Source: a virus
Taxonomy: Duplodnaviria; Caudoviricetes
Direction: 5' to 3' (one strand)
DNA: 36,741 nt
Virus record (IMG/VR): IMGVR_UViG_3300010234_000031
Span: 1-36,741 of that record
In this document: in pieces, positions 1,779 through 33,973 of the stretch
Layout of the letters: the number at the start of each line of letters is the position of its first letter
How positions within the stretch are numbered: position 1 is the stretch's first letter
Notes under the pieces: model-generated
The model's database searches: none
Seen by the model: only the letters and a program-made list of their open reading frames with translations
Told to the model about the DNA's origin: nothing
Translations under genes and position numbers: made by a program

Positions 1779-1846
1779 TGTAGGCGCCGGCGGTTTGCGA
1801 TAGTCAAGCACTCCGGGTACATTTGGGAGAACCTATACCGGGAGCA

Positions 1847-4063
1847 ATGAAGCCAGAACCAAAGACCGTCGTAAATATCTACCTATCCCCGCAAGGATCG
1901 GAAGACGAAACGAAGGCAGAGCCGAAGGGCCGGCCGCTAACGTTCAAGACGGAAGCCGGCGCCGTACTCCCTACGCTGGTGGCTACCGGCGGCGCTATCA
2001 AAGTGCTTGGCAAGACCAAGGACGGAGACACGCGGATAGGCGGCCATATCCTTCTATTCTCGGATGAGGGTTCTCCGGACTTGTGGGGGGACTACTTCAC
2101 GAAGGCCACGCACTACGGGCCGCACAAGACCTTGCCGCTATACTGGCAACACGGCTTCGACTCCAAGATGGGCACGCGCCAGATTGGCGAAATGTCTTGG
2201 GACGTAGACGAAGCCGGCCTATGGGCCGAAGGCATTATGGCGGAGCGGGACGCGTACAGCGCGAGAATCCTGCAAATGATCGAAGACGGAGAGCTAGGCT
2301 ACAGCACTGGCGCCGTAGGCCACCTAGTCCGGGACAAGATGGGACCGACCGGGAAGGCTTGGGAAATTACGGAGTGGGTACTAGGCGAAGTATCGCTAAC
2401 GCACACGCCGGCAGAGCCGCGCACAAGCGCGCTGGTGGACCCCAAAAGTTTCGCTATCAAGACGTTAGACAATCCAGTTTCGGAGCTACACGGAGCGACC
2501 AAGGCCAAAGAGGACGCCACGAAGGCGCCGGCACCGGACGCGGCGGAAGGCAACGGAGCGCATGAACCAAAGACAAAACCAGTTATGACACCCGAAGAAT
2601 TGGCCGCACTGTCCGCCGCGACAGACGCCAACACGAAGGCCGTTGAAGGTTTGGCGTCGGCAGTTACTACGCTCGTAGAGAGCCAGACCGCCGCCGCAGA
2701 AGCCGCCAAGGCCGCCGCAGTAAAGACCACCGCCCCGGACGTAATCACGGCGCCCGGAATCATTACGGATACTTCCGATTGGAAATATGACGCAATGAAG
2801 GCGGACGAAATCGCTATAATGTGCATGTTCCTGAACGCATGCGCGGACCAAGGGCTTAAAAGCGCCAGTGGCCGCCGTGCGGAACGTCCATCCGACCAAG
2901 CCTACCGCGCCATAGGCCGCCGGCTTCTGTCTAGCGAAGTGAAAGAATCTCCGCACTTGATCCCGGCACGCCGAGCCTACAAGAAGTTCTTATGGGATGT
3001 TCAGCAGAAGAACCCGGCTTTCCGTTCGGATGAAGTAATGTACTCCACGCTAGCCGGCTTCGGCGACGAGTGGATTGGCGCCGCCTATTCGGGCGCACTT
3101 TGGGAGAGCATCCGGACAGAAGCCACGCTGGCCTCGCGGTTCCCGTCGTTTGCGTTCCCGGCCGGATCGGATTCCTTTACGGAGCCGTACGATACTTCGG
3201 ACCCGACTTGGTATAAGGTGGCGGAAGCTAACGATATCGCCACGAATCCGGGCACGCCGATTACGCATACGGTCCCCGCTAGCCAGCGCGGAACGGCGAA
3301 AATGACGCACAGCCTAGCCAAGCTCGGCGCGCGCGTAGCGTACTCCGGTGAGCTTGTAGAGGATGCGCTTATTCCTTTCGTGGCCGATCTGGCTAAGAGC
3401 TTGAAGGTATCGGGCGCCGAAATCGTGGATGCCGCGATTATCAACGGTGACGATACGCTGACGGGCACGACGAATATCAACGAGATCGACGGTACGCCGG
3501 CGGCTACGGATTGGTATACCGCGTGGGACGGCCTCCGTTATAACGCTCTTATCGCTAACAGCGCGGCCAACGCGCGGGACGGCGGATCGCTTTCCGTGGA
3601 TGATTACCTAGATACGATGTTCCTTATGGGCACCGTGGGTAAGCACTCCCGGAATAAGGCGAAGTGCGCGTTTATTACGGACCCGACTACCCACAAGGCT
3701 TCCTTGAAGCTGGCGGAAGTAAAGACGCGGGACGTATTCACGGGCGCCACGGTGGAAGGCGGCGATCTGAAAAACGTTTGGGGCTACGAGGTTATCGTAT
3801 CGGACCAAATGTGCCTGACCGCCGATAACCGCCTTTCGAACGCGGCCGGTAAAGTGGACGTAGGTACGCAAGGCAACAACACGAAGGGATCTATTCTCGG
3901 CGTGCGCTTCGACCAGTGGAAGCTCGGTACACGCCGCGCCTTCACGGTAGAGGCGGACCGCGTGCCACAGGCAGACGCTACGGAGCTTGTAGCCATGATG
4001 CGCCTTTCGTTTACGCCGAGGGATACAGAGGCTTCGGCCATTTCGTATAACTTGACCGTATAG
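1847..4063 (+). CDS. Fused HK97-type prohead protease + major capsid protein
   Basis: N-terminal protease motifs (GDYF, LYWQH, DEAGLWAEG, LGYSTG, EVSLTHTPAEPRT); C-terminal HK97-like capsid (KLGARVAYSGELVEDA, DAAIINGD, VWGYEVIVSD); followed by a terminator. Confidence 0.9.
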   Translation: MKPEPKTVVNIYLSPQGSEDETKAEPKGRPLTFKTEAGAVLPTLVATGGAIKVLGKTKDGDTRIGGHILLFSDEGSPDLWGDYFTKATHYGPHKTLPLYWQHGFDSKMGTRQIGEMSWDVDEAGLWAEGIMAERDAYSARILQMIEDGELGYSTGAVGHLVRDKMGPTGKAWEITEWVLGEVSLTHTPAEPRTSALVDPKSFAIKTLDNPVSELHGATKAKEDATKAPAPDAAEGNGAHEPKTKPVMTPEELAALSAATDANTKAVEGLASAVTTLVESQTAAAEAAKAAAVKTTAPDVITAPGIITDTSDWKYDAMKADEIAIMCMFLNACADQGLKSASGRRAERPSDQAYRAIGRRLLSSEVKESPHLIPARRAYKKFLWDVQQKNPAFRSDEVMYSTLAGFGDEWIGAAYSGALWESIRTEATLASRFPSFAFPAGSDSFTEPYDTSDPTWYKVAEANDIATNPGTPITHTVPASQRGTAKMTHSLAKLGARVAYSGELVEDALIPFVADLAKSLKVSGAEIVDAAIINGDDTLTGTTNINEIDGTPAATDWYTAWDGLRYNALIANSAANARDGGSLSVDDYLDTMFLMGTVGKHSRNKAKCAFITDPTTHKASLKLAEVKTRDVFTGATVEGGDLKNVWGYEVIVSDQMCLTADNRLSNAAGKVDVGTQGNNTKGSILGVRFDQWKLGTRRAFTVEADRVPQADATELVAMMRLSFTPRDTEASAISYNLTV

Positions 4064-8759: not shown

Positions 8760-11700
8760 ATGAGCGGCGCACCTATTACGGAGCTTGTAGTACGGATCGG
8801 CACGGACGTACGGGAGCTAGAGCGGCTAAATGGCAAGGTTCAATCCGAGTTCAACAAGGTTGGAGAATCGGTAAGCCGCGTAGGCGCCGGTCTATCGCTG
8901 GCCGTAACGGCTCCAATATTGGCGTTCGGAGCTTCGGCAATATCCGCCGGCGCTAACTTTGAGGAAGGCATGAACAAGGTAAAAGCCTTGTCAGGTGCCA
9001 CGGGCGAAGACTTGGAAATGCTCACTAACCGAGCGAAGGAGTTAGGTAGCTCTACCAAGTTCAGCGCTTCACAAGCGGCGGACGCCATGAGCTTTCTAGC
9101 TATGGCCGGCTTCGACACGGCCGCCATCTACGAAGCCATGCCGTCCGTACTGAACGCCGCCGCCGCCGGAAACATGGACCTAGCCGAATCGGCGGACATT
9201 GTTTCTAACATTATGACCGGCTTCGGCATGACTGCCGACGAGACCGCCGGCGCGGTGGACATTCTGGTAGCCGGCTTCACGAACGCAAACACGGATCTAA
9301 GCCAGCTTGGTTCTGCCATGAGCTACGTAGCGCCGGTAGCTCGGTCCCTAGGGATGGACTTCGGGGACGTAACGACCGCCATCGGTCTTATGTCTAACGC
9401 TGGTATACAGGGAGACCGGGCCGGTACTTCTCTACGCGGAGCGCTGGCTAGGCTGGCGGCGCCTACTGACAAGGTTACGGCCCTATTGGGCAACTTTGGG
9501 CTAACTATGGACGCGTCCAAAGACGGTATGGTTGGAATGTTCAGCGGCGTAGAGAAGACCGTATACGCGCTAAAGGACATGGACGGCAACCTAAAGCCGA
9601 TCCCGGAGCTACTTAAAGCCTTAGAGGCTTCCGGTATGGACGCCGGGACAATGATGACGATTTTTGGCCAGCGCGCCGGGCCGGGTATGCTGGCAATGAT
9701 AGACCAAGGCATGCCGGCTTTTGAAGAGCTACGCCAGACGCTAGAGGATTCCGGCGGTTCGGCAGAGTACGTAGCCGGCACTATGCAGGAAGGACTTAAG
9801 GGCGCCGTAACGGAATTAAAATCCGCTATGGAAGGATTGCAAATAGCAATCTCCGGCGCCGGTATTCAAGGCGTGCTTGAAACGCTGGTAGATACTATGT
9901 CTTTCGTTATCCGGGCTTTCACGGAGGCACCGCCTTGGGTGATGAACCTAGGTGTGGCCGTGGGTGCGCTAGCGGCGGCCATCGGGCCATTGCTTTTTAT
10001 CACTGGAAAGCTAATGGTAATGTTCGGGCCGGGCGGCACTATGACCGTAGGGCTTGCGGCCGTAAAGGCCGGCTTCGCTACAGTGGCTACGGCGCTAGGG
10101 CCGGTAGGGCTTGCCATTGCGGCCGTGGTGGCCGCCGTAGCGCTTCTAATCCTGAATTGGGAGGAAGTTACCGGGTGGATGGGAGAGCGCTTTCCGAAGG
10201 TTGTGGAGGCGTTCAAGGCCATATGGGGAAGCCTACAAGACGCGTTCGCGCGAGTGGGCGAAGCCTTCGAAGGCGTAGGCGGTAGCTTCGGCACGGTCTC
10301 CGAATTTATCGGCATGGCTATAAAGGGCATTTACGAAGTGGCGGACACGGTACTAACGCCGCTAGTCCAGCTATTCGGCTTCGCGTTTGGCAACATGCTA
10401 GACGGCGTGGTTATGGTCTTTGAGCTAATGGCTAACGCGTGGAAAACGATGTTCTCCGTGTTCGGGAATATCTTCGAAGCGGCGTTTAATGTGCTAACCG
10501 GGAATTGGGGCGCCGCGTGGGACAACATAAAGGCGGTCTTCGGAGACATTTGGGTAGGCATAAAAGAGGCGTTCAAGATTGGGCTTAAAGCGCTAATCAA
10601 CATGCTACCGGGATGGGCGCAAGACATGCTAGGCTTGTCGGACGCCTTCGAAGAGAATACCGAGCTATCTAAGAAAGCTCTAGAGGACATGGCGGCGGCC
10701 ACGGCCAGAACAGCCACGGACACGGGCGCCGATTTTGCTTCGATGGACGCGGCGCTAGCCGGCACCACGGACGCCACGGCGGCGCTATCCGAAGAGACGC
10801 GGGACGCTATCGCGGCTATGGGAGACGAAGCCGACGCGGCCGAAGACGCGGCCACGGCGGCGGCCCTATTGGGCGAAGAGAACGAAGAGACCGAAAAGAA
10901 GACGGAGAGTAGCCGGAAGGTAGTAGAGAAGACTACCACCAGCTACGAAGACTTCGGCGGCGTTCTGATAAAAGTAACCAGCGAAACGCGGAAGGTAGGT
11001 AACGAAAAGACCGTGCTTACCGGCATTACGCGGGAGCTAGGCGGCGCCGTAATAGAGGAAGGCGCGGCGTTTGCCGTGCTGGCCGGCCGGGTTACGGAGT
11101 GGGGCGCGGCCACGGCGCAAGCGCTGAACCCGCTACAACAATTAAAGACGGATGGCACGGACCCGGCTAGTCAGTCTATACGCGGCCTAGAGCAGTCTAC
11201 AATCGACGCGGCCAAGGCGGCTTATGACCAAGCGCATGCCGGCGGCGGCGGCCTAGCGGGTGCCATAGCGGAGACCACGCGGCTAATGACGGGCGCGGGT
11301 GGATGGCAAGGCGCCATCGGCGCGGTAATGGAGAAGTTCGGCGGCCCGTCTTCGGGTCTGACCGGATCTATCTTCGGCGTTGTCAACTCCATAACCGGAG
11401 GCGGCGGAATCGGCGGAGCCGTGGGCGGCCTACTCGGACAGCTAGGTATGGGCGGCGGACTCGGCGGCGTTCTCGGCGGAGCCGTGGGGCTACTGACCGG
11501 AGAAGGCGGATTCGGGGACGCGGTACTAGGCGTGGCCGGAATGATACCGGGAATCGGTACAGCCATAACCGGCGTAACCGCCGTGCTGGACATGTTCGGA
11601 ATCGACGCGGGAAAGATTCTGGACAAGGTGGCCGGGACCGTCGTAAAGAAGGTAGGCGACATCGGGAAGGCCATCGGGAAGGCGCTAGGTATTGGGCGCA

Positions 11701-12809
11701 ACACGGACGGCACGGTAGCCCATCAAGTACAGCAAGCCGCACTAGAGGCGGTGAACAAGCTACGGGACGAAGAAGGGCTTAATTGGGTGCAAGCCGTACA
11801 GCAGGTAGCGCAGTCTCTACTTGGAACGCAAGGCATGAACGACCTAGGCCACGACACGCTAGAGAAGATCGCTCAATTCATTTCGCCGGGGATCGGCGCC
11901 AACACTTCGGCCACGATAGAGGAAGCCATACAGAAGTACCTAGACCGAAACACGGACCTCGGCGCCACGCAAGCGGAGGCGGCGGCCAAGGCGCTAGCTA
12001 GTCTGGAAGCGGGACAGTGGAAACTAAACAAGTGGGGAAGCAACTCGGAGGAATTCCGGGCGCTAGTAATGTCTATGTCCGGCGTAACGCAAGCCGAAGT
12101 AGACGAAGCACAGGCGGCGCTGGACTACGCGAAATGGTACGCCGAGAATTACGATAGCGACGGGGAATGGGTCGGCGGCGGATCGGAGCCGGGGAACGGC
12201 CACGGCACGCTACCGGACAGTAAGACCGGCGGCGCCGGAGACGCGGACGATGATGTAGCCGGGCCGGGAGCGGCGGCGCAACAGACGGCCGACGCGGAAG
12301 CGCGCCAGCTAGCATTACTGGAAGAGCTAGGCAAGAAGGTATCGCACGTAATGGACCAAGCCGGGGCGTCCATAACCGGAGCCGAAGGCGCGGCCGTGGC
12401 TGGCGATTGGGCGCGGGTCCGTCCGCTAATGCAAGATGCGGCCTTTGCGTACCGTAGGGTCTTAGGGGATCTGAACGCGGCCGGCGCGGATCGTGGCGTA
12501 CTGGAAGGCATAGAGACAGCCGCAAGCCGTGGCGAACACCTAGCGTCGGAAGCGGCGCAAGCCGGCCAGATGGGCGAAGCCGAAATGGCTATGCACATGC
12601 TGGAAGAGGCGTTGCAATTCATGGCGTCTATCGACCTACCGACAATCGTAGACGGCCTAAAGGCGGCGGTAAGCAACGCCACGGGAACGGGCGACGGCGG
12701 AGCGCCGACGCAAACCATTAACGTGAACATGGACGGGGCTACAGTGGCGTCCGTCGTAGCGGAGAATCTGCCCGAAGTGGTGAACGTAACCACGGGGCGC
12801 GGAGCGTAG
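8760..12809 (+). CDS. Tape measure protein, TP901 family (1349 aa)
   Basis: FEEGMNKVKALSGAT, TKFSASQAADAMSFLAMAGF, GIQGDRAGTSLR; Trp-periodic repeats. Confidence 0.95.
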   Translation: MSGAPITELVVRIGTDVRELERLNGKVQSEFNKVGESVSRVGAGLSLAVTAPILAFGASAISAGANFEEGMNKVKALSGATGEDLEMLTNRAKELGSSTKFSASQAADAMSFLAMAGFDTAAIYEAMPSVLNAAAAGNMDLAESADIVSNIMTGFGMTADETAGAVDILVAGFTNANTDLSQLGSAMSYVAPVARSLGMDFGDVTTAIGLMSNAGIQGDRAGTSLRGALARLAAPTDKVTALLGNFGLTMDASKDGMVGMFSGVEKTVYALKDMDGNLKPIPELLKALEASGMDAGTMMTIFGQRAGPGMLAMIDQGMPAFEELRQTLEDSGGSAEYVAGTMQEGLKGAVTELKSAMEGLQIAISGAGIQGVLETLVDTMSFVIRAFTEAPPWVMNLGVAVGALAAAIGPLLFITGKLMVMFGPGGTMTVGLAAVKAGFATVATALGPVGLAIAAVVAAVALLILNWEEVTGWMGERFPKVVEAFKAIWGSLQDAFARVGEAFEGVGGSFGTVSEFIGMAIKGIYEVADTVLTPLVQLFGFAFGNMLDGVVMVFELMANAWKTMFSVFGNIFEAAFNVLTGNWGAAWDNIKAVFGDIWVGIKEAFKIGLKALINMLPGWAQDMLGLSDAFEENTELSKKALEDMAAATARTATDTGADFASMDAALAGTTDATAALSEETRDAIAAMGDEADAAEDAATAAALLGEENEETEKKTESSRKVVEKTTTSYEDFGGVLIKVTSETRKVGNEKTVLTGITRELGGAVIEEGAAFAVLAGRVTEWGAATAQALNPLQQLKTDGTDPASQSIRGLEQSTIDAAKAAYDQAHAGGGGLAGAIAETTRLMTGAGGWQGAIGAVMEKFGGPSSGLTGSIFGVVNSITGGGGIGGAVGGLLGQLGMGGGLGGVLGGAVGLLTGEGGFGDAVLGVAGMIPGIGTAITGVTAVLDMFGIDAGKILDKVAGTVVKKVGDIGKAIGKALGIGRNTDGTVAHQVQQAALEAVNKLRDEEGLNWVQAVQQVAQSLLGTQGMNDLGHDTLEKIAQFISPGIGANTSATIEEAIQKYLDRNTDLGATQAEAAAKALASLEAGQWKLNKWGSNSEEFRALVMSMSGVTQAEVDEAQAALDYAKWYAENYDSDGEWVGGGSEPGNGHGTLPDSKTGGAGDADDDVAGPGAAAQQTADAEARQLALLEELGKKVSHVMDQAGASITGAEGAAVAGDWARVRPLMQDAAFAYRRVLGDLNAAGADRGVLEGIETAASRGEHLASEAAQAGQMGEAEMAMHMLEEALQFMASIDLPTIVDGLKAAVSNATGTGDGGAPTQTINVNMDGATVASVVAENLPEVVNVTTGRGA

Positions 12810-12915: not shown

Positions 12916-12990
12916 TGTTGCAAGATGTTGACACATATACAATCCTTGTTGTATGTTTGGAACAAGCGACAACGAAACCACGCCGAAACA
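12916..12990 (+). promoter_or_regulatory. Early promoter cassette P2
   Basis: TTGACA 12928-12933, 18 nt, TATGTT 12952-12957; shared flanking motifs. Confidence 0.8.
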
Positions 12991-19644: not shown

Positions 19645-19714
19645 ACCTAGAGTGTTGCAACTATGTAACGCGCGTTGTATACTTAGAACAAGCAAACGAA
19701 CAAGCGCCGAGACA
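19645..19714 (+). promoter_or_regulatory. Early promoter cassette P6
   Basis: TTGCAA 19655-19660, 17 nt, TATACT 19678-19683; 23 nt of leader identical to P3. Confidence 0.8.
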
Positions 19715-25492: not shown

Positions 25493-25521
25493 TGGACAAC
25501 GTGCGCCGGCGGCCGTATTGT
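25493..25521 (+). promoter_or_regulatory. Putative promoter for the lysis cassette
   Basis: TGGACA, 17 nt, TATTGT, followed by a CAACAACAAC leader. Confidence 0.55.
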
Positions 25522-25554
25522 TATCACAACAACAACCGCTAGCCACCGTGCGCC

Positions 25555-26190
25555 GTGGATCAAATACAGCACTACCTTATCGCGCTAGCTAGTGCGGTAC
25601 TTACTGTTCTAATAGTGTGGGTCCACCGCGCCCGGCTAACCGAAGCCGTAATGCGAAACATAGCCAAGCCAGTAGCCACGGCACGCACGTATGCGGACGC
25701 CGTGGGCGATTGGGTAGGCTTCGTTCAACTACGGGAGATTGCCCTATTCGTGTGGACCGGAGGCGACACGATCTTGTGGGACGCCAACGCGTGCGAAATG
25801 TGGGGCATGCCCGTAGAGAACCCGGAGCCGGGCCGCCTTTATTCCGTCCGCTACGAAGATTGGGCCGCGCGCGTATGGGACGAAACAGAATTAGCGCGAA
25901 GCCAGACCCTAGTATCCGAAGCTCTAGCCACCGGGGCGCCATACCAAAGTATTATCAAAGGCCGTGGCGTAAGTGGTAGGTCTTTTCGCGTTCTCTCTAT
26001 TGGGAGCGTGGCAGAAACCGAAGACGGCAAAAAAGAGATACGGGGAATCTCTATATCTTTGCACGGATCGGTAGACGCCGACTCGCCCTATGACACTATT
26101 ATGACGCGTTTACAATCCATGACCGCGCGCACGGAAGGCACTTTCGAAGAAGCGAAAGCCCTAAGAGCGGAGCGTAAAAAATTCTGGTAG
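25555..26190 (+). CDS. Membrane-anchored PAS (PAS_3-like) domain protein
   Basis: N-terminal TM helix; FVW...ILWDANACEMWGM, YEDWAARVW...VSEALATGAPY, GRSFRVLSIGSV..EDG...IRGISI follow the PAS/PAC pattern. Confidence 0.75.
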   Translation: MDQIQHYLIALASAVLTVLIVWVHRARLTEAVMRNIAKPVATARTYADAVGDWVGFVQLREIALFVWTGGDTILWDANACEMWGMPVENPEPGRLYSVRYEDWAARVWDETELARSQTLVSEALATGAPYQSIIKGRGVSGRSFRVLSIGSVAETEDGKKEIRGISISLHGSVDADSPYDTIMTRLQSMTARTEGTFEEAKALRAERKKFW

Positions 26191-26195
26191 GAACA

Positions 26196-26510
26196 ATGCC
26201 CGAAGGTGCAGGCGTGTGGATAGTGCAAGCCGTGGCAATTCCTGTTGTATCGGCTCTATTCTTGTGGGTCCGTACTCTTGTAAAGGAGAAGGACGCCTTG
26301 CAGGAGAAGCGCATAGAAACGCTGGAAAGAATGCTACAGAATTACAACGACGCCGTACGCGTGGTAGAGGCTTCTTTCGAGCTACAGAAGGAAGGCAAGC
26401 TGGTAACGGCGGCCTTCCAAGAACGCGTAACCGAGTACATTCAGGACGCGCGCAATTTCCAAGCGAACGCAATTACTACGTTTGCGGAATTAAAACAGAG
26501 CCGGGACTAG
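26196..26510 (+). CDS. Holin/antiholin-like protein (1 TM + coiled coil)
   Basis: WIVQAVAIPVVSALFLWV followed by a charged helix; upstream of endolysin. Confidence 0.55.
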   Translation: MPEGAGVWIVQAVAIPVVSALFLWVRTLVKEKDALQEKRIETLERMLQNYNDAVRVVEASFELQKEGKLVTAAFQERVTEYIQDARNFQANAITTFAELKQSRD

Positions 26511-26599
26511 GCATGCTAGAGCGAATCTCCATAGACGTTCTACCGCCGATGGACCCGGCGCTAATACCAACCGACAACCCCGAAGCCCCTAGGTACATT

Positions 26600-26782
26600 A
26601 TGAACAAGTTTAAAGCGCTACAGTGGATCTTGAAGGCCGGCGGCCTTCTAATGCTAATCGCGGATTGGCTACCGGATACGCTGGAAGACAAGAAGATCAG
26701 CTACGCCGAAATGGTAGACCTAGGCGAACGGATTGCCCGGCACTTCGGCATAGACGTAGACAAGCAGGGAATAGAAATCTAG
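26600..26782 (+). CDS. Small lysis-cassette protein (alternative start 26513)
   Basis: Amphipathic/hydrophobic N-terminus; abuts endolysin. Confidence 0.5.
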   Translation: MNKFKALQWILKAGGLLMLIADWLPDTLEDKKISYAEMVDLGERIARHFGIDVDKQGIEI

Positions 26783-26786
26783 AGGC

Positions 26787-27218
26787 ATGCTAACCGCAAC
26801 TCTAGAGCGATTCGCGTACGCCCCGGACGGCACGTATGGCCGTCTATTCCTCCCGGACGGGCAGATACTCTATACGGTAGAACAGCCGTGGAATTGCAAC
26901 GCCGTGGGAGCTAGTTGTATTCCAGAAGGTACCTACCAGTGCGCGCCACGGCGCTACAACCGTGGCGGGTATGAGGCCATAGAGATCCGAGCCGTACCGG
27001 GGCGGACGCATATTCTTTTCCACGTAGGCAATACGCCGAGCGACCTACGCGGGTGTATTGCGCCCGGCGTGGCGCGTGGCTGGCTGGAAGGCGCGTGGGC
27101 CGTTACCAGTAGCCGGAAAGCCTTCCGCGTCTTGATGGGCCAGCTAGGCGCCTTAGAGTGGACGCTAGTAGTAAAGGCGAGACAAGTAGACGCAAAGGCC
27201 ACGGCCGCCCCGTGTTAA
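26787..27218 (+). CDS. DUF5675 family protein (L,D-transpeptidase-like), probable endolysin
   Basis: TYGRL, YTVEQPW, SCIPEGTY, VPGRTHILFHVGN...GCIAPG. Confidence 0.85.
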   Translation: MLTATLERFAYAPDGTYGRLFLPDGQILYTVEQPWNCNAVGASCIPEGTYQCAPRRYNRGGYEAIEIRAVPGRTHILFHVGNTPSDLRGCIAPGVARGWLEGAWAVTSSRKAFRVLMGQLGALEWTLVVKARQVDAKATAAPC

Positions 27219-27219
27219 T

Positions 27220-27248
27220 GTGACAAAGTTTCCGGAGCCGGCTATATT
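27220..27248 (+). promoter_or_regulatory. Putative promoter for the tail-tip operon (leaderless)
   Basis: GTGACA, 17 nt, TATATT; ATG begins 7 nt after the -10. Confidence 0.5.
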
Positions 27249-27254
27249 GCGAAC

Positions 27255-28739
27255 ATGGCCTTTACTCTTCGCATAGACGGTACGGAAGTATTCCCACTAG
27301 CCGGCGGTGCGGCCGGCGGTGCGCTGGATGGCGATTGGAGCCAGAACGGAGACGGCCGCCTAGGCTTCGCTCTGAAAGAGACCGGCACGGGCACGCTGTC
27401 TTGGTCCTACCAAGTAGGGGACGCCGTTACGCTGGTAGACGATGTATCCGGGCTAACGCGTTTCGGCGGGTCCATCCAGACGATTAGCGTCCACGAATAC
27501 ACGAACAACCCGGACGGTACGTACACCGTTATCTACGGGATTGCGTGCGTGGACAATAGCTACATAGCGAAGCGCCGGCGTATAAACGCGGTCTACACTA
27601 CGGAGCTTTTCGAAGACATAGTGGACGAGATCGTTACCAACTTCTTGAACAATGAAGGCGTTACGACCACGAACGTAAAGGCTAGCGGCGTGTCCATCCA
27701 GAAGGCGGTATTCAGCTACCGGACCGTGGCGGACGCCTTCGACGCGCTATCCGAAATAATGGGCTACGCGTGGTGGATCGACGCGGACAAGGATCTGCAT
27801 TTTGTGGCGCGCGGAGACGTAGCCGGCACGTACGCGATAACGCCTACCAGCAGGAATTTCCGGACGCTATCCACGGACCGCAAGCTAACCGGCTACGTAA
27901 ATTCGTGGGTAGTCAGAGGCGGCCAAGGGATAACCGACGCCAAGACCGAGAGCCTATCCGGAGACGGAGAACGCCGGGTATTCTCGTTATCGTTCAAGGT
28001 AGCCGAGAAGCCGAGCGCCATAACGATCGACCGTGGGGCCGGGCCAGTGGCCGTAGACGCGGCGGACATAGGCATTAAGGGACTAGATACCGGAAAGGTT
28101 ATCTACTGGCAGAAGGACAACGTAGAAATAGAGCATGACGAGAACGAGACCGTACTAAGCGCCACGGATATTATCTCGGTTACGTACAAGGGACTCTTCC
28201 CTATCGTGGTAGAAGCCGAAGACGCCAGCGCCATAGCGGAGCGCGCGGCGGTAAGCGCCGGCACTTCCGGCCGCTACGAAGGCATAGAGACGGACGTAAG
28301 CATAGAGACCACGAACGCGGCCAGCGACAAGGCGGCCGGCAAGCTCCGGAGAACGTCCGAAATAGAACAGACGATTAAGCTAACGACGGATGATAACACG
28401 ATGTATCCGGGCCAGCTAATCCCGGTAGAGCTTCCGGAGCTTGGCATAAACGGGGATTATCTAGTAGACCGCGTAAAGGCGAAGGACCAAGGCAACTTCA
28501 CTTTAGAGTATACTGTTACCCTAATCTCCGGAGAATCGCGCGGCGGGTGGGAATCCTTTTGGCGGCGCTTCACCCGTCCGGACTCTATCAACGTAGGGGA
28601 CGAGTTCATAGTACAGCTAATCAGCCTAGGCTCTAATCTGCAATTCTCCATGACGGAAACGGCTACTTCCGTCGATTACTTTTTACGATACGATGGAAAC
28701 GGTGGACCCTATGGCATGTGTGAGTACGGAGCGCCGTAA
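27255..28739 (+). CDS. Tail tip/baseplate hub protein
   Basis: RFGGSI, DAFDALSEIMGYAWWIDADKDLHF, YVNSWVVRGG, PGQLI. Confidence 0.75.
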   Translation: MAFTLRIDGTEVFPLAGGAAGGALDGDWSQNGDGRLGFALKETGTGTLSWSYQVGDAVTLVDDVSGLTRFGGSIQTISVHEYTNNPDGTYTVIYGIACVDNSYIAKRRRINAVYTTELFEDIVDEIVTNFLNNEGVTTTNVKASGVSIQKAVFSYRTVADAFDALSEIMGYAWWIDADKDLHFVARGDVAGTYAITPTSRNFRTLSTDRKLTGYVNSWVVRGGQGITDAKTESLSGDGERRVFSLSFKVAEKPSAITIDRGAGPVAVDAADIGIKGLDTGKVIYWQKDNVEIEHDENETVLSATDIISVTYKGLFPIVVEAEDASAIAERAAVSAGTSGRYEGIETDVSIETTNAASDKAAGKLRRTSEIEQTIKLTTDDNTMYPGQLIPVELPELGINGDYLVDRVKAKDQGNFTLEYTVTLISGESRGGWESFWRRFTRPDSINVGDEFIVQLISLGSNLQFSMTETATSVDYFLRYDGNGGPYGMCEYGAP

Positions 28740-29184
28740 AGGTGGCGCGCCGATTGGCGCTACCGTCAATTTCCGCGTGTCGGTTCTGGACGCCGAGACC
28801 GGGGATGTACTGCGCACGGAGCTAGGGCACAACAAGGTGCCTACGGCCGGGCTAAACGTTGTCCGGGATCTTCTGACCGGAGACAGCTCCGCCGTGCTTT
28901 CAACCTTCCGGATCGGAACGGACGATACAGCGGAAGCGGACGGAGACACGGCGCTAGGCACGCAAGTAAATTCCGACTCGTTTACGCAGACCGTAAAGAA
29001 CAGTGCGCAGATAGTCTATTCGTACCTACTGGCGTCCGGAGACCTAAACGTATACGTTCTGAAAGAAGCCGGCATTTTCTTTGACGATGGAACCATTTTC
29101 AACCGTTTCGTCTACGCCGATATAGACAAGAGTAGCGCTATACAGGTACTCTACCAAGTAACGATAGACATTACAGAGGCGTAG
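28693..29184 (+). CDS. Baseplate/tail-fibre attachment protein (start uncertain)
   Basis: NKVPTAGLN, IGTDDTA...DTALG, LKEAGIF, FNR motifs. Confidence 0.7.
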   Translation: METVDPMACVSTERRKGGAPIGATVNFRVSVLDAETGDVLRTELGHNKVPTAGLNVVRDLLTGDSSAVLSTFRIGTDDTAEADGDTALGTQVNSDSFTQTVKNSAQIVYSYLLASGDLNVYVLKEAGIFFDDGTIFNRFVYADIDKSSAIQVLYQVTIDITEA

Positions 29185-29186
29185 GC

Positions 29187-30422
29187 ATGCCAACACTAAC
29201 GGGCAGTACGCACTTAGTCCACCCCACCGGGGGCGACATAGCGACAACGACCAATCAAGGGCGATACGGCTTGGAGGAAATTCTAAGCCATCTACTCTTC
29301 GATACGCTGGCCGGCGCTACAGATTGGGTAGTCTCCGGCTTCGACTACGCCAGCGGCGCGGGTCTTGTGGCAACGTTCAACGGAGGCGCGGCCATTATCC
29401 AAGGCCGGTACGTGAGCGTAACCGGAACGTGGACCGTAACCGTTGCGGACGATGCGACCACCACGGTCTACCTAGCGCTTACGCTGGACGGAGACAACAA
29501 GGTTACGGACGTAACGGTAGAGACTTCCACGCCATCCGGATACTACCTAGAGCTAGGCGCCGTAACGGCCGCCAGCGGGAGCATATCCGGCGGCACGGAC
29601 ACGCGGCGGACCACGCCGGCATTCATCCGGCATACGGACGCTAGCGGCACCACGGCCGGCCACATGCGCCGGACCGGAGAGCGGACCTACGAAGTAGTAG
29701 TAGACAACCTAGCGGCCAACACGGAGCCGGGTGTAAGCAATGACAACACCGAAGGGTACGGCGTAGACTCCCGGTGGATCGACACTACGGCCGGCGAAGC
29801 GTACGTGTGCTTAGACGCCAGCACGGGCGCCGCCGTGTGGGGTCACATTACCAGCCTAGCCGAAGCCGTACTGGACTCGGACTACACGGGCGCCGGAGAT
29901 ATACTGGTAGGGACCGGGGCCGGCACGCACGCCGCTAGGGACATATCCATCAAGGGCACGCTACTGGTAGGAGACGGCACGGACGCGGCGGCCCTATCGG
30001 TAGGCGCCAACGACACGTTCCCGGTAGCGGCCAGCGGCGAAGCCACGGGCATAGAGTGGCGCGTACTGGCGGCCGGAGACATTCCGAGCCTAGCGGCCAG
30101 TATAATTACGAGCGGCACGCTAGCGCACGAACGCGGCGGCCTAGAGGCGGACGTAAGCGCGTACGCCGGGCGCATAGCGATAGCCGGCGGCGCCACTACG
30201 GAAATCAAAGACAACCTAACCGCGTCCGCGCGGCCTGTGTCTACTGACGATAGCGCTTCTGGCTACGGTATCCGGTCGCATTGGGTGATTACGTCCGGCG
30301 GCAACTTGGGCGAAGTATGGCTGTGCCGAGACGCCACTACCAGCGCGGCCGTATGGGATCAAATAAACGCCAGCGGCGGCGGGTCTACTAACCTTTCGGC
30401 CGTCCGATACCTACAGCGATAG
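29187..30422 (+). CDS. Tail fibre protein
   Basis: G.AIIQGRYV N-terminal anchor; GDILVG/KGTLLVG fibre repeats; duplicated DN...GY...S.W...C.DA..AAVW module. Confidence 0.75.
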   Translation: MPTLTGSTHLVHPTGGDIATTTNQGRYGLEEILSHLLFDTLAGATDWVVSGFDYASGAGLVATFNGGAAIIQGRYVSVTGTWTVTVADDATTTVYLALTLDGDNKVTDVTVETSTPSGYYLELGAVTAASGSISGGTDTRRTTPAFIRHTDASGTTAGHMRRTGERTYEVVVDNLAANTEPGVSNDNTEGYGVDSRWIDTTAGEAYVCLDASTGAAVWGHITSLAEAVLDSDYTGAGDILVGTGAGTHAARDISIKGTLLVGDGTDAAALSVGANDTFPVAASGEATGIEWRVLAAGDIPSLAASIITSGTLAHERGGLEADVSAYAGRIAIAGGATTEIKDNLTASARPVSTDDSASGYGIRSHWVITSGGNLGEVWLCRDATTSAAVWDQINASGGGSTNLSAVRYLQR

Positions 30423-30423
30423 C

Positions 30424-31803
30424 ATGGCACAAGACGCAAATACAGTACACCCGTTGTCGGAAATGACCGGCGGCCCGATAGAGATTACGTCTACTACGTG
30501 GGTCAAAGTTCACGATGTACCGGCCACGGCGGAAGGCGACGAAGTAACCGTACAGCTACGGGCCAGAGACACGGCTACGATTGCATGGAAGGTTATCCAT
30601 CCGGATAATCGGAGCATGCCGCTACTGGAATCGGCTTCACGAGCGGCCACGGTAGGCGGCACGGTAAAGATTCTGGACGGCGTGGTATTGCCGGCGGACT
30701 CGGAAGTTTGGGTAAAAGGCGTAACGATTCCGAGCAAGACCGGCATAACCGGGAACGACGAAATTTGGGTGCCTACTGCCGATGGCGTAAAGGTGTATAC
30801 GGCGGACTCCGGTTTCGCGGAGCTAGCGCACTTCGGAAGCGGCACGGCCTACGTGGCCGCCATTCCTATGATGCACAAGAACGCCGTTATTTGCGTCCGG
30901 GCTAGCTCTACTACCGTCGATATCTTCGACCTAAACGGAGACAGCCAAGGCACGCTAACGCTATCGACCGCCGCGCCGGCTTCCATCCCGGCACGTACCG
31001 GAGGGCGCAACTTCCAGATTAGCGGCACGAATTCCGATGGCGACCACGTAGCCTTCGTAATGAATACCAACCTACTCGTATGCCTAGACTGCGCAGACGC
31101 GGACCCGGAGAATTGGGTAGAAGAGTGGGAGTATTCGGCCACTACGTCCGTGCTAGGGATCTTCTACAACGAAGTAAACGACCAGTGGCTAACGCTAAAG
31201 GACGCGGCTACGTACGTGGTTCTGGACAAGACGGCCGGCACGGAATCCGGCACGCGGTCCGCTACCAACGGGTCTCTAATGGATTTCTTCCTAGGGGACC
31301 GAGACGGAAGCCGGGTCTTTGCCTTTGGTAATGACGCTAGCGCCGACTGTAGGACGGCATACGTGGCGTTGTCTTCGATAGCCGCAGACACGGCGCACGT
31401 AAGCGGCGCACACTTTGACAACGTTTCGGCGGCGGGAAGCGAAACGCCTATGGACGATGGCGCGGTAGACGGCTTGCAGTACGAAGCCGCCAATACAAAA
31501 TTCCAGCACTGCAACAAGCAACTAGAAAACGCCACGAACACCGTAACGGATGTAGACACTACGGACGGCTCGGACCCGACGCCACTAGCGGACTCGGAGC
31601 TTTTTGTAATCAGCGACACGGCTTGCATTTTCAATGACGGGTCCGTGCTACAGCACTTATCTACGACCACGTACACGGCCAGCGACATAAGCACCACGTA
31701 CAGCCCCGGCGGGATCTGCTACGAGTGCCGGACCACGGGCGAGACCGTTACGGTAGGAGACGGCGGCATTTACATAGACGGCATGGCCGTTAGAACCACC
31801 TAG
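30424..31803 (+). CDS. Putative receptor-binding/tail protein, paralog A
   Basis: Acidic, beta-rich; collinear similarity to 31808-33217. Confidence 0.65.
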   Translation: MAQDANTVHPLSEMTGGPIEITSTTWVKVHDVPATAEGDEVTVQLRARDTATIAWKVIHPDNRSMPLLESASRAATVGGTVKILDGVVLPADSEVWVKGVTIPSKTGITGNDEIWVPTADGVKVYTADSGFAELAHFGSGTAYVAAIPMMHKNAVICVRASSTTVDIFDLNGDSQGTLTLSTAAPASIPARTGGRNFQISGTNSDGDHVAFVMNTNLLVCLDCADADPENWVEEWEYSATTSVLGIFYNEVNDQWLTLKDAATYVVLDKTAGTESGTRSATNGSLMDFFLGDRDGSRVFAFGNDASADCRTAYVALSSIAADTAHVSGAHFDNVSAAGSETPMDDGAVDGLQYEAANTKFQHCNKQLENATNTVTDVDTTDGSDPTPLADSELFVISDTACIFNDGSVLQHLSTTTYTASDISTTYSPGGICYECRTTGETVTVGDGGIYIDGMAVRTT

Positions 31804-31807
31804 CACA

Positions 31808-33217
31808 ATGGCTAACAGCACGTTTACGATTCACCAGCTATCCGAGCAAACGGATGACTGTATAGAGCTTACCGCAGTGGGCACATGGACGCTAGTTCAC
31901 ACGGTCCCGGACACGACGGACCTAGTGGACGAAGTGAGCATAACGCTAATGTCTATAGGCTCCGGATCTATCGACTACCGCGTAGAGCATCCGGACGTAG
32001 CCGGCACGCTACTGTCAGGCACCGTAGCCGCCGTAGCCGGCGCAGATACGGCCGTGCTGGACAAAGAGATTTTGCCGCAAGGGACAACGGTACTGGTAAA
32101 GGCCACCAGCACGCCGGGCGCCAGCGACCTAACCGGGGACGAAGAGCTATACGTACCTACGACCGATGGCATAAAGATCTACACCGCAGACGCCGCGTTT
32201 ACAGAGCGGAGCCTAACGATAGGTAGCGGAACGTCCTACGTAGGCGCCATCCCGGTTACGCACAAGAACGGCGGCGTAGTAATCGGCTTGCGTACTAGCT
32301 CTACCACCGTGGACATTTTCGACCTAGGCGGCAACTCGCTAGGCACGCTAACGCTGTCTACGGCTATGCCGGCCACGCTAACCAGTAACGGCGGAGAGTT
32401 CTACGCGTTCAGCGGCACGGATTCCGATGGCGATTACCTAGCCTTCCACGATGAAAACGGCCGGATAAAGTGCATAGATATGTCCGATGCGGACCCGGAC
32501 AACTGGACGGAGGCTTGGGAATATAATTGGTCTGCCAGCTTCGCTCGGTTTCAGGGTATCTACTACAACGAGACCTACAGCCAGTTTATCGTTTGCCGCA
32601 CTACGGCCACTAATTGCGCCATAGGACGATTCGCCGAAGCGGACGGCACGCTAGACGATAGCCAGAGTGATAACGACATAGGCAACAACGCGGACTTTTT
32701 CGTACATGACCGGGCGACTACGGCCGGCTTCGCCTTCGGGGCCGGTGCATCCGGAGACGCGGACGAGTGGAACCTAACCGGAAGCACTACTACGACTGCG
32801 GCAGGTAGGGGCACTAACGCCGGGCATTTCGACTACGCGCAAGCGGCCGGCCTTCTGGACGTACTGGACGGCGGCAACGTGGCCGGCCTTTTCTACGACA
32901 CGAACGCCAGCGACTTCCGGCATGCGTCGAAGATGGCGGAGGACGCAAGCAACACTAACACAAGCATAACCGGGATCGGCGCCAACGTGATTCCGGAGGC
33001 GCGTTCCCGGATCTTTGCCCTAAGCACTACCGAGCTAGTCTACGAAGACGATAACGGCGTACTGACGCACGTATCCGGATCGACCTTCACGCAAGGACCA
33101 ACAGTAGACCAAGACAGAGCCGGCGGTATCGGCTTCGAACGCCGCACCACGCCTTCCACTATCACGCTACCGGATGGCGGCCTATTCATCAAGGGACAAG
33201 CACTACGAGTACAGTAA
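31808..33217 (+). CDS. Putative receptor-binding/tail protein, paralog B
   Basis: Shares SSTTVDIFDL.G.S.GTLTLSTA, SGT.SDGD, DADP.NW.E.WEY with paralog A. Confidence 0.65.
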   Translation: MANSTFTIHQLSEQTDDCIELTAVGTWTLVHTVPDTTDLVDEVSITLMSIGSGSIDYRVEHPDVAGTLLSGTVAAVAGADTAVLDKEILPQGTTVLVKATSTPGASDLTGDEELYVPTTDGIKIYTADAAFTERSLTIGSGTSYVGAIPVTHKNGGVVIGLRTSSTTVDIFDLGGNSLGTLTLSTAMPATLTSNGGEFYAFSGTDSDGDYLAFHDENGRIKCIDMSDADPDNWTEAWEYNWSASFARFQGIYYNETYSQFIVCRTTATNCAIGRFAEADGTLDDSQSDNDIGNNADFFVHDRATTAGFAFGAGASGDADEWNLTGSTTTTAAGRGTNAGHFDYAQAAGLLDVLDGGNVAGLFYDTNASDFRHASKMAEDASNTNTSITGIGANVIPEARSRIFALSTTELVYEDDNGVLTHVSGSTFTQGPTVDQDRAGGIGFERRTTPSTITLPDGGLFIKGQALRVQ

Positions 33218-33750
33218 TGGACCGACACTACAAGACCCAAGGCACGCCGGAAGAAGACGGTTCCATACCGCACGCGTTTGTCTACGACCATTCCGAAGAG
33301 TGGACCGAGCTAGGCTACGCCGCATACGTGGTAGATCCGGAATTCGAAATGGACGCGGCGGCCGTGCTGGCGGCCCTATCGGCAACAGTGCCGGGGACTA
33401 TGACCGCCGTAACGCTAACGGAATACTTCGCGTATGCAGACGCGGCGTTTACAGCGGCCGGCGTCTTCGCGGATCTGTCCGGCGTGTGGGCGCTAGGTAG
33501 CGACTTCGTACCGAGACTAGAGACGGCACTAGCGGAAGCGCGCTACGCCGCCGCACTGGCGCTTATCCGCACGCAACCCGTGGTGCCTAGGTTTATCATA
33601 GAGAACGGGGCGCCGGCCATTAATCCGGCCTACACGCCGCTAGAGACGGCGCTAGACGCATGCCTGACTACGGTATGCCAGAAGGACGCACAAGTACCGT
33701 ACGATCCAGCATGGACCGAAGCGGACGTAGACGCCGCAAGGGTACACTAA
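33217..33750 (+). CDS. Hypothetical protein (177 aa), tail-module associated
   Basis: TAATG coupling to the upstream gene. Confidence 0.7.
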   Translation: MDRHYKTQGTPEEDGSIPHAFVYDHSEEWTELGYAAYVVDPEFEMDAAAVLAALSATVPGTMTAVTLTEYFAYADAAFTAAGVFADLSGVWALGSDFVPRLETALAEARYAAALALIRTQPVVPRFIIENGAPAINPAYTPLETALDACLTTVCQKDAQVPYDPAWTEADVDAARVH

Positions 33751-33751
33751 C

Positions 33752-33973
33752 ATGCAAGGAGACTACGCACTTTGGGCTATCCCGCTATTCGCCGGCGCCA
33801 TCATTCTTTACGAAGTGGTAGCCGTATGGCGGAAGGGCGATAAGACCAGCACGATTAGCGAAGCATTCTGGCACGCGGCCGGCCGGCGCTGGTATGCCAC
33901 AATCATTCTAATCTTTTCTCTCGGCTTCCTTACGTGCCATCTGGTAGGCGCTACGCCGCCGTGGCAAGCCTAG
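33752..33973 (+). CDS. Two-TM small membrane protein (holin-like)
   Basis: Two hydrophobic helices separated by TISE. Confidence 0.55.
   Translation: MQGDYALWAIPLFAGAIILYEVVAVWRKGDKTSTISEAFWHAAGRRWYATIILIFSLGFLTCHLVGATPPWQA

Follow-up and report, generated by a model that had tools for sequence, protein, structure and literature searches.

A predicted membrane-anchored PAS protein of an undescribed family in a likely lysis cassette of a tailed phage

Results

The locus and its genomic setting

The window, i.e., the whole stretch of DNA that was analyzed, spans 36,741 bases; it is a linear virus record with an estimated completeness of 88%. Profile scans of 45 open reading frames (ORFs) identify a tailed phage: genes for the capsid, connector, tail tube and tape measure are present, as are RecE/RecT-like and replication genes, and no integrase, repressor or lipobox was detected among the ORFs scanned. 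The 3' end of the record falls within the portal gene and its start lies just 5' of a head-morphogenesis gene, so that little of the genome is probably missing. The tail module is split between 8760-12809 and 27255-33750, with the tape-measure gene on one side, the tail-tip and fibre genes on the other, and early, recombination and lysis genes over the approximately 14 kb in between. The prohead protease and the major capsid protein are fused in a single ORF of 746 amino acids (1823-4063), and a clear Shine-Dalgarno sequence is absent at many starts across the window.

After the replication genes, the gene order runs from a small helix-turn-helix gene through four plus-strand genes, here named A to D, to the tail-tip genes, the terminase and the portal. 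Genes A-D form a unit of 1.7 kb with intergenic gaps of 5, 2 and 4 bases, in line with the tight packing reported in the preliminary description of this locus. The features are:

25493..25521, plus strand: weak sigma-70-type promoter-like site (TGGACA-17-TATTGT; 9 of 12 matches) in the 63-base gap before gene A
25555-26190, plus strand: gene A, 211 amino acids from a GTG start; membrane helix, flexible linker, predicted PAS domain, C-terminal helix
26196-26510, plus strand: gene B, 104 amino acids; one N-terminal membrane helix and a charged, amphipathic helical tail
26513-26782, plus strand: gene C, orphan of 89 amino acids with coding-like codon use; alternative ATG at 26600
26787-27218, plus strand: gene D, 143 amino acids; DUF5675, predicted L,D-transpeptidase (C82-like) fold, candidate endolysin
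27220..27248, plus strand: second promoter-like site (10 of 12 matches) in the gap after gene D and before the tail-tip genes

The preliminary description also placed a promoter ahead of the four genes. A site is indeed present in the gap before gene A and, at rank 19 of 73,376 positions in a matrix scan, is similar to five strong phage sites, but it is the weakest part of the observation: two promoter-like sites were found in the region where 1.2 +/- 1.0 are expected by chance, which leaves this one at chance level by itself. The second site (rank 46 in the same scan) may mark a boundary of the cassette. Elsewhere in the window, five near-consensus sites (TTGACA-17/18-TATnnT) occur on the plus strand at 12928, 14268, 15046, 17922 and 20826; their second hexamer is in each case preceded by TG and followed by an ACAA(G/C)-rich stretch. 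Sites of similar score are found at 19655 (plus) and 1621 (minus). A terminator-like hairpin at 25578-25599 was dropped as being at chance level.

Genes B to D as a likely lysis cassette

Gene D matches the Pfam family DUF5675 with an E-value of 1.7e-32 (112 bits vs a cut-off of 26.7), and H79, N82, G89 and C90 are invariant in all ten aligned sequences, which confirms the family and the HxGN...GC motif originally assigned to it. Its best-scoring matches among cultured phages are those of Salinibacter phages (52%, E 9e-29). In a VIA-align comparison, the gene D model aligns with Pgp2 over 109 residues (Z 9.3, rmsd 3.2), and the top 20 rows (Z 9.3 to 5.0) consist of cell-wall proteins of the L,D-transpeptidase type or related to it, the next row dropping to 4.0; Foldseek reached an E-value of 4e-3 only. 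The model thus predicts a YkuD-type L,D-transpeptidase (C82-like) fold with a His79...Cys90 pair. This agrees with the accessible part of a preprint, where DUF5675 is classed among the C82-like candidate lysins (bioRxiv 10.64898/2026.04.11.717860). No other cell-wall enzyme was found among the 45 window ORFs (Pfam, PHROGs). Judged by predicted fold and context, gene D is the likely endolysin and the only candidate found.

Mu-like phages keep their lysin just after the late activator, and in two Vibrio phages the DUF5675 gene follows the late activator at a distance of one or two genes. In Salinibacter phage M8CC-19, an annotated holin is located three genes after the DUF5675 gene. Among DUF5675 loci from IMG/VR, several of them short contigs, a membrane gene is adjacent in 5 of 14 credible loci; a fifteenth (L028, E 1e-3) was left out of this count as not credible. 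In another locus (L027), a one-helix coiled-coil protein with a B-like layout is encoded at 849-1319, directly after the DUF5675 gene, and no relative of gene A is present.

Gene B, first described as a membrane helix with a coiled coil, has a helix at residues 7-25 (hydrophobicity mean 2.23) followed by an amphipathic tail. It is the only membrane gene next to gene D, in a unit with gaps of 2-5 bases. Profile scans with Pfam and PHROGs gave no holin family match, and no relatives were found beyond the partner gene in locus L001 (see below). The architecture is like that of LysF1b- or BhlA-type lysis proteins. The BhlA match reached only 0.85 and serves as a lead; for LysF1b, the N-terminal helix and the charge bias fit, with 33% charged residues in the tail of gene B vs about 50% in that of LysF1b. 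By analogy, we regard gene B as a candidate holin subunit and a candidate partner of gene A. Gene C, for which profile and sequence searches found neither a family nor a relative, has no clear membrane helix (maximum 1.35) and carries amphipathic stretches or helices, as expected from its initial description as a small amphipathic protein. The predicted fold of gene D, the helix of gene B and the gene order together support the earlier proposal that B-C-D is probably a lysis cassette.

A further membrane protein, of 73 amino acids and with two helices, is encoded at 33752-33973 (plus strand), directly preceding a probable small terminase gene; it matches DUF7427 below the cut-off (E 1.4e-5). 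It is a possible class II holin outside the cassette and, as such, a rival to gene B.

Gene A: start codon, membrane anchor and PAS fold

The public gene call for gene A (P0005) begins at the ATG of codon 33, by which the membrane helix is lost. Between the stop at 25540 and the GTG at 25555, no other in-frame start codon occurs. Codons 1-32 are coding-like (0.26 bits per codon, a value reached by 2 of 586 off-frame windows), and they cover a hydrophobic helix that spans residues 8-26 (Kyte-Doolittle mean over 19 residues, 2.01). An N-terminal membrane or hydrophobic segment is likewise present in seven of the nine relatives of gene A. Codon use and the helix in the relatives thus favor the longer GTG form and, with it, the membrane anchor that had been proposed; the shorter start (179 amino acids) was rejected as the sole form. 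In A, B and both proteins of locus L001, acidic residues precede the helix and basic residues follow it, and an N-out/C-in topology is predicted for gene A.

An AF2 model of gene A, built on a nine-sequence alignment, has a mean pLDDT of 76, with core blocks at 87-96. Strands 62-67, 72-76, 130-137, 143-154 and 160-169 form a five-stranded antiparallel sheet with helices in between, in PAS order. Foldseek returned 94 PDB matches at E<=0.001, PAS/LOV-type throughout among the matches listed, and VIA-align superposes the model on 6pps_A with Z 12.1 and an rmsd of 2.0 over 99 aligned residues. ESM Atlas places gene A with PAS_3 clusters (score 0.97). The PAS fold of the preliminary description, for which a check by an AlphaFold model had been suggested, is therefore well supported as a prediction, at about residues 60-170. 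At the level of sequence, Pfam and PHROGs profiles give no match to gene A, a search of PDB sequences found nothing significant, and only one relative (P0007) matches Pfam PAS_3 (E 0.019).

The PAS domain is followed by a C-terminal helix (residues 178-210). As had been observed at the outset, no output domain (kinase, cyclase or DNA-binding) is present in A, and in all ten sequences of the family (A plus nine relatives) the chain ends 37-52 residues after the glycine of the last strand. A kinase was also absent from the 45 window ORFs scanned.

The gene A family and its sensing features

When gene A was searched with HMMER against 1.84 billion proteins, 11 hits were obtained (E<=0.001), from which A itself and two repeat-rich proteins (P0011 and P0014) were dropped; the latter two matched in several short stretches and bear unrelated names. 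The eight credible relatives, together with the one in L001, share 22-32% identity, and none has an output domain. Word-based searches recovered only A itself and two of the known relatives. When A and the L001 relative were compared with 50,697 phage records by tblastn, no match was found, and P0007 gave two weak N-terminal matches to Rhodococcus phage membrane proteins. Scans for the family yielded one member in viral contigs, that of L001, and none in metagenomes. A candidate from a genome scan (L005, E 2e-4) was rejected as a lipoprotein-like bacterial ORF. The same HMMER search over 1.84 billion proteins revealed no bacterial sensor kinase detectably related to A.

The invariant positions of the family are aromatic residues and glycines (F65, W67, W103, G150 and G164). 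LOV photoreceptors carry the flavin-adduct motif NCRxLQ, and haem-binding PAS domains of the FixL type have a conserved proximal histidine. The LOV motif occurs in none of the ten family sequences. Conservation of a Cys or His is likewise absent, and the PAS core shows no column of conserved histidines. Flavin-adduct or haem sensing by A is thus unsupported; LOV- or FixL-type cofactor sensing was rejected, and no evidence was found for cofactor sensing or for the redox signal once suggested for A.

The C-terminal DIT motif is also missing from all ten sequences. According to the accessible part of one study, this motif is thought to couple a PAS domain to the helix that follows and is common, not universal, a working PAS group without it being known (PMC3183031). 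Its absence is consequently compatible with sensing by the A family. The spacer between the PAS domain and the C-terminal helix ranges from 16 to 30 residues, and both linkers of A are modeled at pLDDT <50 and vary across the family. Missing DIT motif and variable linkers make a rigid helix relay unlikely, which casts doubt on the signal transfer through flanking helices that the preliminary description had in mind. The C-terminal helix itself, in which an M-x-R-L pattern is partly conserved, occurs in every member, and this suggests a contact surface.

In one relative (P0013), an ethylene-receptor-type membrane domain (ETR1_N, E 1.4e-8) replaces the single helix and is joined to the A-family PAS domain. 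The ETR1_N part of P0013 contains a C-x-x-x-H stretch, and the protein has no kinase. P0008 has a similar three-helix N-terminus that gives no Pfam match.

Gene neighborhoods of gene A relatives and of PAS-fold genes

The survey of gene order that had been suggested gave a divided answer. Only the relative in L001 (30% identity, E 2e-12) has a readable context. It is followed, with overlapping stop and start, by a protein of 105 amino acids with one helix and a helical tail. The similarity of this partner to gene B is weak (22% identity, pairwise E 0.002): its score of 50 lies above that of shuffled sequences (P 0.0005-0.003), and a helix-plus-coil protein from a locus without gene A scores 57. 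The L001 pair is located between the portal and scaffold genes, and no lysis family or endolysin was detected among 24 ORFs of this contig (15.2 kb, 39% complete). Conversely, none of the 15 DUF5675 loci carries an A-family gene. What looks conserved is therefore gene A with a B-like gene behind it (both loci with context), and not gene A with an endolysin (one of the two), so that a conserved link of gene A homologs to lysis genes is not supported. In phage D29, as far as the accessible part of a preprint goes, the gene equivalent to LysF1b lies outside the lysis cassette (10.64898/2026.08.27.747656), and by this precedent the position of the L001 pair is compatible with a lysis role.

Fold matches to gene A in BFVD point to the cultured Cellulophaga phages phi18:3 and phi19:1, the genes being assigned by organism and length only. 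Similar to gene A, these genes (gp090 and gp108, respectively) encode a hydrophobic segment before the domain and are found near lysis-type genes: gp090 lies two genes before a GH108 endolysin, and gp108 directly follows a weakly holin-like gene. Unlike A in sequence, they belong to a different family (hhalign probability <1%). In both Cellulophaga phages, a related multi-helix membrane gene (phrog_21474; L010 39637-40143 and L012 5610-6149) sits between the PAS-like gene and the endolysin.

Discussion

Based on predicted folds and gene order, we propose that the proteins of gene A and its relatives form a real, undescribed PAS family, encoded in the window within a likely lysis cassette. Its building blocks have counterparts in several known systems. 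In the cluster F1 mycobacteriophages, LysF1b is a one-helix N-out/C-in protein needed for normal lysis, as described in the accessible part of the report (PMC13056207). One protein of the LysF1a/LysF1b pair and of the LysA2a/LysA2b pair of D29 resembles gene B in its single N-terminal helix, its N-out/C-in orientation (predicted for B) and its helical, charged tail. In both pairs, two membrane proteins act together and their genes may lie outside the cassette (PMC13056207; 10.64898/2026.08.27.747656). The likeness to A-B is one of layout; the second protein of those pairs has two helices, and no PAS domain appears in what is accessible of the two sources. The T4 holin T and its antiholin RI offer another parallel, a separate and possibly membrane-anchored protein controlling a one-helix holin on a signal; RI, as far as the available text of the source tells, is periplasmic and responds to superinfection, whereas the domain of A has a PAS fold and is predicted to be cytoplasmic (PMC11413866).

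The fold of A is shared with PAS domains of sensor kinases, including the second PAS of Brucella LOV-HK (6pps/6ph4), a Burkholderia domain (3mr0) and FixL (8js5), at Z 9.8-12.1 and with the same helix-PAS-helix order. Identity to these domains is only 10-14%, and A differs from them in having no kinase, DIT motif, LOV Cys motif or conserved His. Also relevant here is VqmA of vibriophage VP882, which contains a PAS domain. Like the proposed A, it is a phage-encoded sensor that influences host killing; in the accessible part of the source it is a soluble transcription factor on the lysis-lysogeny switch, whereas A lacks a DNA-binding domain and its site of action would be the membrane (10.1101/2021.04.15.439952). 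The literature searched, in which subscription journals are largely uncovered, gave no account of a phage PAS lysis regulator or of a lysis module that includes a PAS protein.

How the A-B pair functions can be read in several ways. We tentatively favor, at slightly under even chances, gene A as a partner that regulates gene B in the control of lysis, whether or not a ligand is involved. We rate at the same level the broader statement that A and B make up a late membrane module that is portable and likely modulates lysis. A portable accessory module outside lysis, whose spot before gene D is incidental, appears unlikely; examples would be a kinase-less decoy that pairs with a host sensor kinase or titrates its ligand, or an exclusion module. 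A does resemble a sensor kinase truncated after its PAS domain, and the pair occupies two different late-operon positions and is unlinked to DUF5675 elsewhere, but a mimic of a particular host kinase would be expected to have a related bacterial kinase in the proteins searched, and B is the sole membrane gene adjoining D, at gaps of 2-5 bases. Slightly less probable still is that A has a structural role as one subunit of a multi-part holin, its PAS domain having lost sensing and serving only for oligomerization or as a scaffold. The missing cofactor ligand and DIT motif, the variable linkers and the invariant aromatic residues and glycines, which could be purely structural, all fit such a role, and two-protein holin systems exist, at least in the accessible parts of two reports (PMC13056207; 10.64898/2026.08.27.747656). 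However, the fusion of ETR1_N to an A-family PAS domain in P0013 suggests sensor wiring, and a gene that is absent from 15 DUF5675 loci looks optional.

Two further explanations carry far less weight. Membrane anchoring of head assembly or of some other late step, as the place of the L001 pair between portal and scaffold might indicate, is improbable given that the pair in the window is approximately 7-8 kb away from the terminase and portal genes and tightly coupled to gene D. Finally, one N-terminal helix with a long helical tail is also a spanin layout, as the accessible part of one report notes (PMC13056207), so that B could be a spanin of the inner membrane whose tail is periplasmic, with A unconnected to it. 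We consider this very improbable and rejected B as a spanin: its charges predict N-out/C-in, the opposite of spanins, and no lipobox occurs in any coding-like ORF of the window.

If gene A is indeed a regulatory partner of gene B, a membrane-tethered PAS protein devoid of an output domain would adjust the timing of the B-dependent membrane damage that releases gene D. Both proteins would be made late and inserted N-out/C-in, which would place the PAS domain and the tail of B in the cytoplasm. Contact between them may occur via the membrane helices and/or the conserved C-terminal helix of A. In this complex, A would either keep B inactive or license it, as antiholin- or LysF1-type partners do. 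In the last and least supported step, the PAS pocket would bind a small cytoplasmic ligand, probably not a covalent flavin or His-bound haem, and thereby shift the balance between A and B. Signal-responsive lysis timing by A, the central suggestion of the preliminary description, is hence plausible; true ligand-gated timing is a doubtful, low-probability form of it.

Burst size and phage fitness are determined by the time of lysis. The described signal-responsive controls of lysis that we found rely on superinfection in the case of T4 RI and on transcription in that of VqmA of VP882. Even if gene A were only structural, it would still represent an undescribed PAS family missed by Pfam and PHROGs. 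If it regulates lysis, direct action of a PAS domain on a holin-type protein would constitute a third route, one that reads the cell interior. It is then conceivable, although we consider it as doubtful as ligand gating itself, that a cytoplasmic ligand times lysis with neither transcription nor phosphorylation involved, phages having turned stripped-down bacterial sensor domains (PAS, and once an ethylene-receptor-type domain with PAS) into membrane regulators that gate a one-helix holin directly.
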